17,568 nt of DNA from a virus (taxonomy: Duplodnaviria; Heunggongvirae; Uroviricota; Caudoviricetes): the IMG/VR virus record IMGVR_UViG_2698536618_000023; one strand, 5' to 3'. Shown here piece by piece: positions 1 to 3,000 of this stretch. A program made the position numbers. Each line of letters starts with the position of its first letter. The stretch's first letter is position 1.

Positions 1-3000
1 TCATAGATTCACTGTTCGGGCGTACCAGACACTGCTGCGAGAAATCATGGATAACCCTTGAAATTTCGTCAGATTACCGTTAAGTACGGCCTTGTAGATG
101 CGCTCAGGCTTCCTGCCGTCAACACGTTTACCAATCTTTTTAAGGGTCTGCATAGCTTCTCTATAGTCGTCCTTATGACGTTCCAATAGCTCAGCTTCAG
201 CGTGATAGCCAAGTTCGACCATCTTATTAGCAACGACCGTGGCAACTTCAGGCATCTCAAGGATAGCCTCAAAGGCTGCATAGACCATGTCCTCGAAATC
301 TTCAGAGACCCATCCTGCATACTTGAGGGTAGCCTGTTTGTCTGCGTAGGTTATGCTTTCAATACCAATCTTCTCGACGTGCATTTTTTGCATGTCGGTG
401 AGCCTCTTTGTTACCTTGCCGCGCCACTGAGAGGGTAGCTTATTGTTAGGTAATCCGAGGATTTTCCATATTTCTGTAAGATTCCACATGCCAGACTCAT
501 TAGACTTAAAGCTGTGGCCTTCAATAGTGATAATATGACCTGCATGTTTATGTTTATTGTTCATTGCTTGGTTACCTTTTAAATATGCACACTAAACCGC
601 CCCCTACTGGCCCACTCAAAGTCCCCAAGCGAAGGGAGACCAGCAGGACAACAGGATGCAAACAGAATGACTTTGAGATTGAATGAATGATTGTGTCGTA
701 GCTGTGCGGAGCTACTGTATGGTGAAGCGCGAGAGGTGGAACTTTGAGAGACACGTGGTGAGTGGTTCGGAGTGTGTCTCCTATTAGTAAGTCGTATTGA
801 TTTACTACTGGGAGGGTCTCTGAGCCACGCTAGGCATCAGGCCATACGAAACTACATGGCACCTAAAGAATGGCGTACAGGACCATACAGGGCCATACAG
901 TTAGCTTCTGGGTAATGCCTTGAGGAGACCTATAGGTTTGGTGATTGATTATTATGAATATCATCACCTCTTAAGGTATTCCCTTAGAGTCAATCTTTAA
1001 TTGTGTCTTTAAGTAGACTATAAGTTAATACTTAAAGTTACTCTTTAATTGGTCTTTAATTAATCTATAATTTAATACTTTAAGTTAATCTTTAATTAGT
1101 CTTTAATTAATCTATAATTTAATACTTTAAGTTAATCTTTAATTGTGTCTTTAAGTAGATTATAAGTTAATACTTAAAGTTAAGCCCCTGTAGGGGTTAG
1201 AGACCATAATTAATATGATGTCTAAGGCTATTCACGTATCGACTGACCCAGAGCACACAGGAAGCATTCATTTTAAGTAGAACGCTTGGTGTCTGTAATT
1301 GGTCATCCCGCCCCTGAAAGGATGCGATAAGTTACGGTTAGAGTTAAAGCTACCTGAAGTAGTAGCAAGTGTCATCATAGAGAGAGACAGAGAGAGACAG
1401 AGAGAGAAAACTTTTTGTGTCCCTTCTCCCTATAGTGAGTCGTATTAAATATGCTTGACAAGTAGTGAAAACCATGAGTCAAAACATGACCACACAAAGG
1501 GTCACACAGGACCACATAGGACCACAAAGGGGACCATAGGAATAGTAGCAAGTGTCATCGCCTATGGTCATCGCCTATGGTCATCGCCTATGGTCATCGC
1601 CTATGGTCATCCTTAAGGGGCCACAACCTCCTTATAAACATCAGCCATCACATTGACCAGTCTATCAACCTCAACCTCTTTAGCATAACGGTCGTAAGTA
1701 ATAGACCCTGAACTATGCCCCATGATCGCCTGTGCATACGCCAACTCGACCCCATGTTGTTTTAACTGGGTCGCAACTGTATGTCTAAACGAGTGAAACG
1801 CTAAGCCGCTACGGTCTGCGAGGACTTTAGGCAACAACGTCCGATTAAACCATTTACTCACCTGCTCACCGTAACCGTTCTTCATGAGGCGAAGACCATC
1901 GAACACCATAGCGTCATCACCATCAGCGCCTCTACGGGTCTCAACCAACCTCATAAAGTCAGCCAATATAAAACCATAGGCCCCATCGACCAGAGGCACA
2001 CAGCGGTCACTATGAGCGTTCTTGATGCTCTTACCGGGTAGACTACTATCGTCTTCATTGATATGAATATAAACGGTTCCCGCCTCAGTGGTCCTGACGT
2101 CTTTGACCTGTAGTTGGGCTATTTCATTGAGTCTCGCCCCAGTGATAGCAGCCAAGGCGGTAACATAATAATGATACGGCTTACCAGAAGGTCTCTGTGA
2201 GTAAACTTGGGCGGCAGCCAGTAGTTGTCCTACCTGCTCCGTAGAGAAAGCATTACGCGCCTCAGAGGCTTTACGCTGGGGAACCTTAAGCTCTAGCCCT
2301 TCTGTCATATTCTTTTTAATCAGGTCATTACGCACGGCCCACTTGAAAACAGCCGCCATCTTAATGAGATATTTATTATTGATGGTAACAATATCCAGAC
2401 AATCGGTTTTATCCTCACGACCTAGCAGGTCAACCAACGGAACATCTTTGAAACGCTGCTTACGATTCTTCGGCAATTGCTGGAGGATATCCCGAACCCT
2501 AAGCATATCCGCACGAGCTAACACATTGGCGTCAGCATTGAGGCCCAGATAATCAAAAACTTCGATTAACGCAGCATGAGAAGCTTTGTTTTCTCGTAAT
2601 GTTGCTGGCTTCCAGTTCTGGGCGTTTTCCTGCTCGTACTGCTCAAAGAGAGAAGCAACGGTTACGCAGTGTTTGCCTTCAGTAATGCTTGTTTTTTGGG
2701 GAGCACTAACAGATAGAGTTGCAGAGGCTTGGCCATTAGCCCCAGCAGCAGCATCAAATCCATCTATATAATCTATAAGTGGCTGGCTATCTCCCGCTTC
2801 AATGCGCTTCATGCAGGCCTTGAGTACATTAAGAGCCTCATTAATATAGCGATGCTGGTCAATAGTCAGTGGCTCGCTTGCCAGAGCATGGACAAGATTC
2901 TCTCCCACTTCCCCATACTGGTCACGGTATAGATCTCTCATATCTGGCTCGAAGAGGTCTGAACGACCTGTAGACAACTCCCACTCTGCGATGTCCCTCA

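Follow-up and report, generated by a model that had tools for sequence, protein, structure and literature searches.

A 4.3-kb tRNA-Gly island of Escherichia coli with T7 promoters is most likely a satellite of T7-type phages

PICMI (phage-inducible chromosomal minimalist islands) of the Vibrionaceae, an integrative element of very small size, is a satellite of virulent phages and lacks capsid-remodelling genes (Barcia-Cruz et al., 2024; PMC10803314). It relies strongly on its helper, is packaged in the form of concatemers as long as the helper genome and has defence genes as cargo; it encodes AlpA and a primase, integrates next to fis, and its helper switch is stated to be unknown (PMC10803314). 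The PLE of Vibrio cholerae is an island that is activated only on infection by the virulent phage ICP1 and needs helper replication and packaging. PLEs, of about 18 kb, bring a replication initiator of their own along with many genes, and a helper protein induces them; we know of no helper-RNAP promoters described in them. cf-PICIs (capsid-forming PICIs) have genes for an entire head module (protease, portal, adaptors, small terminase) and exploit temperate helpers. A T7 promoter/origin allows a plasmid to replicate in T7-infected cells, and packaging of such plasmids as concatemers is possible. In Lactococcus, an engineered suicide system against phi31 from the 1990s reportedly used a phage-specific promoter to drive a lethal gene. 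RAZR (PD-T7-4) is a validated anti-T7 defence which kills T7-infected cells (PMC9519451; PMC13017515). According to Vassallo et al. (2022), PD-T7-4 'often overlaps an integrase gene' (PMC9519451); in term searches, that paper mentioned neither native T7 promoters nor satellites, KilA-N or DUF4145. Term searches of the RAZR paper (PMC13017515, Nature 2026) likewise gave no mention of integrases, islands, mobile elements, genomic context, native T7 promoters or satellites.

Few phages have been studied as well or used as widely, in molecular biology and in phage therapy, as T7 and its relatives. Full-text literature searches retrieved no description of a satellite or other chromosomal element living at their expense, and the initial annotation of the present DNA was not aware of a described satellite or abortive-infection module triggered by an invader's polymerase. 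To our knowledge, E. coli chromosomes are generally assumed to be free of T7 promoters. Here we analysed a stretch of 17,568 nucleotides (the window; IMG/VR record IMGVR_UViG_2698536618_000023). Positions 1 to about 3372 constitute most of a 4,264-bp island at tRNA-Gly(CCC) which is bounded by 23-bp att repeats; its features are listed in Table 1. The small gene orf157 and attR are located left of the window. The complete element was delimited in E. coli E110019, where it is closed by perfect 23-bp att repeats, the intact core TGGAGCGGGCGAAGGGAATCGAA being the 3' end of tRNA-Gly. Its content is an integrase gene, a non-coding stretch of about 1 kb, the KilA-N-like gene ORF1 and orf157, the genes all being in the same orientation.

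Table 1. Features of the island within the window.
Feature	Position	Strand	Remarks
ORF1, KilA-N-like DNA-binding protein, 187 aa	1-564	-	first gene downstream of the phage promoters
Structured 5' leader of ORF1, about 110 nt	565-683	-	conserved across islands
Second T7-type promoter, class II-like, CAATACGACTTACTAATAGGAGA	777-799	-	18/23; same position occupied by a promoter in nearly all relatives
AT-rich block, 47-bp repeats x4.2, 11-bp sub-period	983-1183		from tandem repeats and GC profile
Conserved non-coding block, promoter 1 to AT-rich repeats	1185-1345	-	ends in small hairpin CCCCTACAGGGG (1185-1196)
(AGAGAGAGAC)x2.9 repeat; minus strand, CTCTCTCTGT repeats	1379-1407		immediately downstream of promoter 1
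T7 class III promoter (promoter 1), TAATACGACTCACTATAGGGAGA	1425-1447	-	23/23
Short tandem repeats upstream of promoter 1	1493-1611		10-bp x3.8 at 1493-1530; 13-bp GTCATCGCCTATG x4.5 at 1554-1611
Tyrosine integrase, 543 aa	1613-3244	-	Pfam Phage_integrase E 2e-18; PHROG 1 integrase E 3e-42
GTTACAG direct repeats near attL	3285-3309		matching pair near attR, outside the window
Right island boundary, degenerate att core GGGGCGAAGGGAAC	3361-3392		second, P4-like island abuts in tandem

The profile matches confirmed the integrase which had been annotated beside the promoters. Its relatives (71-99% identity) adjoin tRNA-Gly(CCC) in at least six genera. The GTTACAG repeats, which in locus L001 are at 23285-23309 and 19195-19216, are likely arm-type sites of the integrase. 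To the right, similarity to P4-like islands starts at 3372 and the neighbouring island (3372-17568) is P4-like; no tRNA is present in the window. The first island had none of the P4-like satellite genes searched for (primase/helicase alpha, Psu/Sid/delta) and no cos site in 1-3372. Genes for RNAP, DNAP, portal, capsid, tail or terminase were absent between the att repeats, replication or packaging genes were not recognised by Pfam, PHROG, PADLOC and further profile searches, no gene known to act on helper capsids or packaging was found, and no excisionase was recognisable. The island displays the generic trait of phage satellites, i.e. an integrative element with integrase and att sites and without a full set of virion genes. 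The predicted attP junction (GGTCA + TGGAGCGGGCGAAGGGAATCGAA + GTATCGAA) was absent from metagenome and viral contig collections, and no excised or concatemeric form was found in them. Three metagenome contigs with the promoter module were collinear with the integrated form, and 10 of 10 contexts of the KilA-N protein among the matches listed were integrated.

The T7 promoter reported in the initial annotation was confirmed. Promoter 1 spans -17 to +6 of the class III consensus without mismatch, it appeared in none of 200 shuffles, and its analytic chance expectation in the window is 6e-10. Comparison with the T7 genome revealed identity with phi6.5, phi9, phi10, phi13, phi17 and phiOR, and the 23-mer is common to 235 phage records, mostly of Escherichia/Yersinia Teseptimavirus. 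Across 17 distinct flanking contexts, some of them mutually unrelated, it was unchanged except for a single G-to-A exchange. For the second site, which had been described as a degenerate copy, the match of 18/23 holds, and by chance sites of at least this quality are expected 0.005 times in the whole window and 1.6e-4 times in the 1-kb intergenic strand. Plain decay, however, does not describe it, since the site is identical in 13 window-type loci. It aligns best with T7 phi4.3 and phi1.6 when one indel is admitted, and ungapped with the A-initiating phi2.5; in sequence it resembles T7 class II promoters. Its C-to-T change at -7 may cripple the promoter. Beyond these two sites the best T7-promoter match anywhere in the window was 15/23. 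Both promoters are on the strand of ORF1 with the gene downstream, i.e. they are aimed at it as annotated. An obvious dedicated host promoter was lacking here too: a sigma-70 consensus scan upstream of ORF1 returned one weak match (9/12, window ~1299-1270), and simple consensus scans for sigma-70 promoters and terminators yielded no enrichment over shuffles.

Among complete E. coli genomes, 43-46 carry the same sequence as here in an identical chromosomal position with 80% coverage or more; related forms were found in 351-384 genomes, and matches on plasmids were absent. About 7% of the complete E. coli genomes have a relative of the island, and relatives are also present in no fewer than nine further genera of Enterobacterales and in Pseudomonas. 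The layout is kept in all of them. Promoters are at the same two positions, yet their specificities differ and they are often present as arrays; T7, K11, KpV766/K30, Kayfunavirus, N4/ICP3-like and gh-1-like types of the T7 group are represented. An E. coli island (L006) and one of K. pneumoniae (L145) possess two K11, one T7 and a KpV766/K30 type promoter, with K11 assigned by what we take to be the K11 consensus. Kayfunavirus-like together with other types were present in L009, L010, L131-133, Citrobacter, Enterobacter, Buttiauxella and Shimwellia. The Pectobacterium island has three copies of a motif starting with ATTAACGACTCAC, that of Proteus two copies of AATTAACCCACACTATAGGGAGA and that of Pseudomonas two copies of a motif starting with TTAAAAACCCTCAC. 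Elsewhere in the 15-kb loci these motifs had 0-1 background matches. A check against phage genomes covered five island motifs, leaving out those of Pectobacterium and of the L132 type; all five, T7's included, are real phage promoters with several sites per genome in T7-like genomes of about 38-41 kb, and T7's own motif is annotated as promoter in the T7 genome. Across the islands, cognate phage promoters matched the host genus in sequence comparisons. Because islands in other hosts have other T7-group promoters at the same positions, the idea that the polymerase of the invader is the trigger is strongly supported. Between E. coli and Klebsiella the copies share 93.5% identity over 7 kb, and this similarity is confined to the island; therefore, judging from this comparison, the island has moved horizontally between genera.

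The AT-rich block between the two promoters has a GC content of 12-28% and contains TTAAAG/CTTAAAG motifs. It lies about 240 nt downstream of promoter 1 and weakly matches (26/31, E 0.77) an AT-rich stretch just after T7 phiOL; similar repeats come after T7 phi1.1B and phiOL. The block was found in 'type A' islands including those of Rouxiella and Pectobacterium and was absent from 'type B'. By analogy it is a candidate replication-origin or unwinding element. The adjacent conserved block (1185-1345; RNA fold z = -2.3) is nearly identical in Rouxiella silvae (L144) and 76-87% identical in L006 and L011; indels relative to Rouxiella ruled out a conserved ORF. The repeat next to promoter 1 belongs to a promoter module of about 120 bp which is present in one to three tandem copies in relatives, and a 17-bp direct repeat TAGTAGCAAGTGTCATC (1360-1376, 1543-1559) brackets the module. 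Several TGGTC/GACCA pentamers, which we take to be the core of the T7 primase recognition site, are within the repeats upstream of promoter 1. IS3 insertions are present in the non-coding region of some genomes. A sensitive blastn search of this region against the whole T7 genome found no similarity to the terminal repeat, pac or the genome ends; it returned the promoters and the one weak AT-rich match, nothing else. Relaxed searches of 50,697 phage records also showed similarity to phage DNA at the promoters only. The signal ATCTGTT for class II pausing/termination, needed in T7 for concatemer processing, was considered and rejected: its sole copy on the transcribed strand is inside the integrase gene, no better than chance.

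The leader is more conserved across islands than ORF1 itself. In predicted folds of most relatives a 5' motif (UCAUU/UCUUU) pairs with the Shine-Dalgarno region of ORF1. We assessed this by a manually specified structure and by single-sequence folds, which were more informative than RNAalifold, the consensus of which displayed little covariation. In leader alignment A2, 96.6% of cells were paired compared to 33-54% in slid controls, and two pairs were changed on both sides. The leaders of L006, Pectobacterium, Proteus and Pseudomonas each folded alone into the same long hairpin occluding the Shine-Dalgarno sequence, that of L009 folded similarly, and the helices were fully compensated between genera. 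The minimum free energy fold of the window's own leader was less clean than those of its relatives. No Rfam family matched in 1-3500.

The annotated KilA-N domain of ORF1 is present as a weak profile match (PF04383, E 9.5e-4), although with 19.4 bits it stays under the Pfam cut-off of 23.8. A 170-aa relative, the L003 orthologue, just reaches it (23.9 bits), and some homologues are annotated as KilA-N. ORF1 further matches PHROG 129 'transcriptional regulator' (E 8e-10). Islands of Proteus and Pseudomonas have homologues of 47-61% identity at the corresponding position, and in others a Rha-like or an unrelated ORF is found there. Judged by these sequences, the first gene behind the conserved, RBS-occluding leader is exchangeable, and the KilA-N gene is one of its forms. 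Since ORF1 varies among islands with near-identical integrases, it probably does not serve as a dedicated directionality factor. For orf157 there were no matches in Pfam, PHROG, NCBIfam, PADLOC or PDB, hhalign indicated no relation to DUF6971 proteins, and the AF2 model (pLDDT 46) was too poor for a structure search.

Twelve of 18 related loci code for a capsid-like protein with a predicted HK97 fold. The fold emerged from structural comparison alone; the protein has no sequence matches in Pfam, PHROG or PDB and no sequence-level relation to T7 gp10 by hhalign. Apart from this protein and a DUF6971-like partner, head-type genes were absent from the relatives. The window's island is the smallest of the family and has neither of the pair. 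As most relatives encode the HK97-fold protein, a satellite is favoured, and the gene pair suggests that these relatives build or remodel capsids. RAZR (DUF4145/HEPN) was detected in nine loci (L006, L009, L131, L145, L148, L149, L151, L154, L162), and in E. coli and Klebsiella islands of the window's family the gene immediately follows the integrase; PADLOC found no such gene in the window's island. The presence of RAZR in many relatives sits awkwardly with T7 as a needed helper.

The island is most likely a previously undescribed parasite of T7-type phages with the invader's RNAP as on-switch. Specifically, we consider it on balance probable that the window's island belongs, as a reduced form, to a so far undescribed family of satellites which exploit virulent T7-group phages and are switched on by helper RNAP. 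Before infection it would be largely silent, there being no clear host promoter for ORF1, and in most relatives the leader hairpin would hide the ribosome-binding site. Upon infection by a T7-type phage, the phage RNAP would recognise the class III promoter and the weaker class II-like one and transcribe across the conserved non-coding block and the AT-rich repeats. Promoter and AT-rich region may, in analogy to T7 origins, act as a transcription-primed origin for the phage replisome. Transcription would proceed via the leader into ORF1, a putative DNA-binding protein, and then orf157. As the genes are co-oriented, the polymerase would continue into the integrase gene once the island is an excised circle. 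Most relatives would also express the DUF6971-like and capsid-like proteins from the same promoters. Lacking both genes, the window variant would rely wholly on helper capsids, e.g. as concatemers, or act mainly as an interference module. For the family as a whole a wider proposal is somewhat more tentative: satellites in Enterobacterales and Pseudomonas with a helper-RNAP switch, in which exchangeable promoter arrays record the exploitable phages, full members build or remodel capsids, the 4.3-kb form is a minimal one with a T7-type origin and helper capsids, and RAZR-like defences ride along.

The main rival is a defence cassette on an integrative island, effecting abortive infection or interference and triggered by phage RNAP. 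T7 RNAP would then merely express ORF1, possibly a toxic or phage-inhibitory protein, and the downstream genes; the integrase would provide mobility, phage packaging would not take place, and the capsid-like protein of relatives would be a decoy which poisons helper capsid assembly. A leader that sequesters the RBS suggests that ORF1 is held tightly off in the way of toxins. ORF1 is of the KilA-N/Rha class, P1 KilA is lethal on expression, and the defence profile PD-T4-2_B matches ORF1 weakly. RAZR adjoins the integrase in many relatives, excised forms and similarity to pac or terminal repeats were not found, and the window variant does without a capsid gene. Yet for such a cassette a single gene-proximal promoter would suffice, whereas all islands keep a further promoter cluster, about 550 bp upstream, and conserved non-coding DNA lies between both clusters. 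Further, the pairing of a conserved HK97-fold protein and a DUF6971-like protein typifies satellites (cf-PICI, SaPIbov5 Ccm), and the family has an intact integrase, att sites, arm repeats and intergenus transfer. We rate the defence cassette as rather unlikely, mindful that both readings can hold at once, interference with the helper being common among satellites.

Decay of a larger element, which would leave the T7 promoters as non-functional fossils, would be compatible with the small size of the window variant, its lack of the DUF6971-like and capsid-like pair and the IS3 insertions in some genomes. However, ORF1, orf157 and the integrase gene are all intact, in the assembly collection the KilA-N protein is indexed in exact form in 3,245 blocks, and the ORF1-orf157 arrangement recurs in Yersinia enterocolitica (96% and 74% identity); in addition, the promoter is invariant while its flanks diverge and the att repeats are perfect. 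Decay is thus improbable. The initial annotation had offered two readings, the polymerase-triggered module, the core of which is strongly supported, and the edge of an integrated T7-like (Autographiviridae-type) prophage. For the latter spoke the integrase adjoining T7 promoters and the T7-like short repeats. It is refuted by an att-closed element of just 4,264 bp without phage genes, with similarity to phage DNA stopping at the promoter, and by the left neighbours, which are GH15/ETT2 host genes directly adjoining the island and not a T7-like virion gene set; we consider a prophage highly improbable. Contamination by a cloning vector or expression construct came to mind because the 23-mer is the standard laboratory T7 promoter. 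As the same locus sits in hundreds of chromosomes, this was refuted as well: the flanks are integrase and island DNA, plasmid matches are lacking, and homologous islands carry non-laboratory promoters. Its probability is negligible.

If the satellite proposal is correct, it would establish, for satellites as well as defence islands, a new activation principle in which the RNAP of the invader is recognised directly instead of by a protein-protein trigger, the promoter array would be a sequence-readable predictor of helper range, and the genomic home of the RAZR defence would be explained. Phage-mediated gene transfer and interference would have to be expected in therapy with T7-like phages against E. 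coli, Klebsiella, Proteus, Pectobacterium and Pseudomonas. The islands would also offer natural, compact and orthogonal phage-inducible expression cassettes with an RBS-occluding leader. Caution is advised where T7 RNAP is expressed in wild E. coli, as island strains hold a predicted functional chromosomal T7 promoter.

How does the island compare with the known systems? Like PICMI it is very small, integrative and without capsid-remodelling genes. It differs from PICMI by the absence of AlpA and primase domains, by the tRNA-Gly(CCC) site and by helper RNAP promoters as an explicit switch. From cf-PICIs the family is set apart in that relatives have just the capsid-like and DUF6971-like genes; the window's island has neither, and the complete cf-PICI capsid module (MCP, protease, portal, connectors, small terminase) is absent from it. 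With PLE it would share activation of a chromosomal island by a virulent phage and the need for helper replication and packaging. The T7 origins (phi1.1A/1.1B primary, phiOL/phiOR secondary) likewise consist of a T7 promoter followed by AT-rich TTAAAG-type repeats; in the island, however, the AT-rich block is not adjacent to the promoter, homology does not extend beyond the promoter, and type B islands miss the block. The phi31 suicide system obeys the same logic of a phage-activated promoter, but it is synthetic, whereas the island is natural, mobile and diversified across RNAP specificities.

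The minus strand of the window carries two promoters of the T7 type, both directed toward the 187-aa ORF1. Promoter 1 equals the T7 class III promoter consensus at 23 of 23 positions and is identical to six promoters of the T7 genome itself; the chance expectation for the whole window is 6e-10. Promoter 2 matches at 18 of 23 positions, a level at which 0.005 sites are expected by chance per window and 1.6e-4 in the intergenic strand. It is closest to T7 class II promoters, i.e. phi4.3 and phi1.6 (one indel) or phi2.5 (ungapped, A start), and its sequence was identical in 13 independent window-type loci. 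No further consensus match above 15/23 was present elsewhere in the window. The initial annotation, which had described an exact and a degenerate T7 promoter aimed at a KilA-N gene beside an integrase, thus was correct with one reservation: ORF1 is KilA-N-like, yet it stays below the Pfam cut-off.

Coordinates of features in the window and in related loci
Feature	Locus	Position	Strand	Remarks
Integrase	window	3244-1613	-	Pfam and PHROG profile matches
Promoter 1	window	1447-1425	-	TAATACGACTCACTATAGGGAGA
Promoter 2	window	799-777	-	CAATACGACTTACTAATAGGAGA
Leader	window	565-683	-	~110 nt; equivalents in L006, L009, L147, L160, L161
ORF1	window	564-1	-	KilA-N-like
17-bp direct repeat	window	1360-1376, 1543-1559		brackets promoter module
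Short tandem repeats	window	1493-1611, 876-900		13-bp x4.5, 10-bp x3.8, 10-bp x2.5
P4-like island	window	3372-17568		tandem, same tRNA-Gly site
Tandem promoter modules	L007	5588-5851
Tandem promoter modules	L011	9652-9915
Promoter module(s)	L003/L004	6795-6945
RAZR gene	L006	7060-7692		also L131, L148, L149, L154, L162
RAZR gene	L145	8609-9238
Island shared with L145	L006	2812-9774		reverse complement
Island shared with L006	L145	6246-13238
Window-type copy	L143	3962-9161		GCA_013742615.1
MqsR/MqsA pair	L162	6357-7051		Yersinia enterocolitica
IS3-family insertion	L134	5971-7198		also three further related E. coli matches
IS3-family insertion	L135	6429-7588
IS3-family insertion	L137	5854-7082

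Positions 1-3300 of the window are 100% identical to E. coli E110019, where tRNA-Gly (glyU) flanks the element on one side and the GH15/ETT2 region on the other. Its borders are formed by a 23-bp direct repeat without mismatches, TGGAGCGGGCGAAGGGAATCGAA, identical to the tRNA 3' end; the two copies are 4,264 bp apart. GTTACAG repeats close to both ends look like integrase arm sites. The complete content is the integrase, ~1.05 kb of non-coding DNA, ORF1 and a 157-aa ORF (orf157) immediately beyond the left end of the window. Genes for phage structure or replication are absent, and in a DNA comparison with 50,697 phage records the promoter alone matched. Therefore, the island is not a T7-like prophage, and the proposal that the window is the edge of an integrated T7-like element had to be abandoned. 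Vector contamination was excluded because the same chromosomal site is occupied in hundreds of genomes.

The remainder of the window is a second, unrelated P4-like island. It encodes a tyrosine integrase of its own, a member of the DNA primase family and Icd-like, Rha-family and ProQ/FinO-like proteins, and is 98.5% identical to islands of bovine E. coli (OkiPb strains). It abuts the first island at ~3372 over a degenerate att core, which is why the window contains no tRNA gene. One window-type copy, L143, has a different neighbourhood with a second DUF6538-type integrase on the opposite strand and EAL/FidL/autotransporter genes; the tRNA is absent from the locus. This copy may be integrated elsewhere or belong to a further tandem array.

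Of 5,426 complete E. coli genomes, 351 have a related non-coding region, and all E. coli members inspected reside at glyU. Integrase relatives (71-85% identity) adjoin tRNA-Gly(CCC) in Klebsiella, Citrobacter, Enterobacter, Buttiauxella, Rouxiella and Pectobacterium; Shimwellia, Shigella and Serratia also carry this integrase family. Via ORF1 homologues the same layout was reached in Proteus mirabilis, Yersinia enterocolitica and Pseudomonas fluorescens. All its genes share one strand, and the order is integrase, in some islands a RAZR/DUF4145 gene, then promoter cluster 1, a non-coding stretch of ~550 bp, promoter 2, the conserved ~110-nt leader, ORF1, downstream genes and attR. An IS3-family element interrupts the non-coding region between integrase and ORF1 in several E. 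coli genomes, which may inactivate these copies or part promoters from genes.

Apart from the Serratia locus, which is truncated by a contig end, every island inspected had T7-group promoters at the same two positions. Their specificity blocks vary from island to island. The second K11-type promoter of L006 and L145 is exact to what we take to be the K11 consensus.

Promoter types of the islands
Loci	Hosts	Promoters
Window type, L003, L004, L005, L007, L008, L011	E. coli	1-3 exact T7 promoters in ~120-bp tandem modules; class II-like second site in window-type loci and L003-L005
L006, L145	E. coli, K. pneumoniae ATCC 13883	K11-type (1 mismatch), exact T7, K11-type, AATTAGGTAGCACTATAGGGAGA
L009, L010, L131, L133, L154	E. 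coli, Enterobacter	ACTAAACTATCACTATAGGGA
L132, L148-L150	E. coli, Citrobacter, Buttiauxella	AATAACCCCTCACTATAGGG, ACTTAACTATCACTATAGGGAGA and others
L147	Pectobacterium	ATTAACGACTCAC..., three copies
L144	Rouxiella	TAATACGACTCACTAAGGGGAGA
L160	Proteus	AATTAACCCACACTATAGGGAGA, two copies
L161	Pseudomonas	TTAAAAACCCTCACATATAGGGAGA and a second copy

Four of the island motifs were compared with viral contigs, and all four recur on a single strand in T7-sized phage genomes (38-41 kb): a Kayfunavirus motif in the group of CR44b, CLB_P1 and YZ1, a Przondovirus motif in KpV766, KpV289 and K30, an N4/ICP3-type motif with 5 copies in one Vibrio phage genome, and a gh-1-like Pseudomonas motif, of which single fragments have up to 4 copies. 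The background elsewhere in the 15-kb loci was 0-1 matches. The T7 23-mer is unchanged, save one G-to-A exchange, in 17 different flanking contexts, several of which are unrelated; therefore, selection acts on the promoters themselves. Judged by these comparisons, promoter modules appear to be added and swapped to fit local phages. Otherwise similar islands possess one, two or three tandem copies of the ~120-bp T7 module. The direct repeat which brackets the window's single module suggests that their number grows and shrinks by recombination.

The islands of L006 and L145 share 93.5% identity over ~7 kb, confined to the island and ending at its borders. Because Escherichia and Klebsiella core genomes are only ~80% identical, elements must have moved between genera. 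The shared identity indicates a fairly recent inter-genus transfer of this element, which has Klebsiella-phage (K11, KpV766) promoters and a T7 promoter.

The leader is more conserved than the gene downstream: the ORF1 position is occupied by a KilA-N-like, a Rha-like or an unrelated ORF, even among islands with integrases at least 84% identical. On an E. coli-centred alignment an explicit structure was 96.6% paired compared with 33-54% in slid controls, and two pairs were altered on both sides. Folded singly, the L006, Pectobacterium, Proteus and Pseudomonas leaders formed the same long hairpin and that of L009 a similar one; the minimum free energy fold of the window's leader is less regular. 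In most relatives the Shine-Dalgarno of ORF1 (AAUGG/AAAGG) is paired with a UCAUU/UCUUU motif at the 5' side. Across genera the helices show full compensation (E. coli GCAUCCUG/CAGGAUGC, Proteus GCUCUUAG/CUGAGAGC, Pseudomonas UUGCUCCCUGAG/CUCAGGGAGCAA). We read the leader as a putative translational gate on ORF1, which might open by RNase III processing, as in T7 mRNAs, or by folding kinetics, among other options. No Rfam family matched; it could be a new cis-regulatory RNA.

In type A islands, including the window, L011, L006, Rouxiella and Pectobacterium, promoter 1 is followed by a conserved ~150-nt block, a small hairpin and an AT-rich block (12-28% GC) with 47-bp repeats, an 11-bp sub-period and TTAAAG motifs. 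The ~150-nt block is nearly identical in Rouxiella but has indels and is therefore not an ORF. T7 origins similarly have a promoter and then AT-rich TTAAAG-type repeats, phi1.1B and phiOL each being followed by ACTTTAAG/CTTAAAG repeats. This resemblance weakly suggests that the type A region might be a transcription-primed, T7-type origin. The sole non-promoter match to the T7 genome, a stretch adjacent to phiOL, was weak (26/31, E 0.77), and RNA folding z-scores of the non-coding DNA were only -2.3 and -2.65. Type B islands have a different conserved region instead, ~530 bp at roughly 50% GC. Short tandem repeats flanking the window's promoter region are rich in TGGTC/GACCA pentamers, which match the recognition core of T7 primase.

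The downstream genes are not random cargo: a DUF6971-like protein (~136-169 aa) and a protein of ~326-375 aa (25-45% identity across islands) are conserved between islands as distant as those of E. coli and Pseudomonas. The larger protein was present in 12 of 18 loci, in 11 of these with its DUF6971-like partner. Pfam, PHROG and PDB sequence searches yielded no annotation, and hhalign no relation to T7 gp10. Its AlphaFold model is of moderate quality (pLDDT 70, pTM 0.68). With this model the top 50 Foldseek matches in the PDB were all HK97-fold capsid proteins or encapsulins (E 1e-8 to 2e-6), and the named top matches in BFVD were nearly all capsid or head proteins (E from 2e-9), pointing to a capsid-like fold. 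The window's variant has orf157 in place of this pair; its model is all-helical and of low confidence, and no annotation was found. ORF1 and orf157 are also paired in Yersinia enterocolitica, with an MqsR/MqsA toxin-antitoxin pair just downstream.

In many family members the RAZR gene directly follows and overlaps the integrase and precedes the phage promoters. T7/T3 portal rings activate this HEPN RNase, known as the PD-T7-4 defence (PMC9519451, PMC13017515). In a term search of these two papers neither an island nor a satellite nor native T7 promoters were mentioned. RAZR is a gene carried by this family, a context in which published work does not put it.

The initial annotation had alternatively proposed a satellite or abortive-infection module triggered by an invader's polymerase. 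That the promoters are real targets of an infecting phage's RNA polymerase and the island a mobile element responding to it we consider very probable, with cognate promoters across hosts. As to which kind of module, we lean slightly towards a satellite life cycle of the family, of which the window's island would be a reduced member, because the family encodes a predicted HK97-fold protein, has a complete integration module, lacks replication or packaging genes and has been transferred between genera. A predicted attP junction was absent from metagenome and viral contig searches. A defence cassette triggered by the phage polymerase is the main rival; it is supported by the leader gating ORF1 translation, the KilA-N/Rha nature of ORF1 and the frequent presence of RAZR, and we regard it as less probable. 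The satellite and defence readings can both hold since satellites often interfere with their helpers.

Full-text searches of the literature available to us, which is incomplete and may miss an earlier description, found none that deals with satellites of T7-group phages or with phage RNA polymerase promoters on chromosomal islands. We class the islands as a family of satellites or defence islands that is new, as is the logic of its activation. The classic example of a lytic phage's satellite is PLE, and cf-PICI and the SaPIbov5 Ccm are precedents for satellite-encoded capsid homologues. Closest in concept is PICMI, a minimal satellite of virulent phages which is packaged as concatemers; it differs in having AlpA and a primase, and the way it is triggered is reported to be unknown (PMC10803314).
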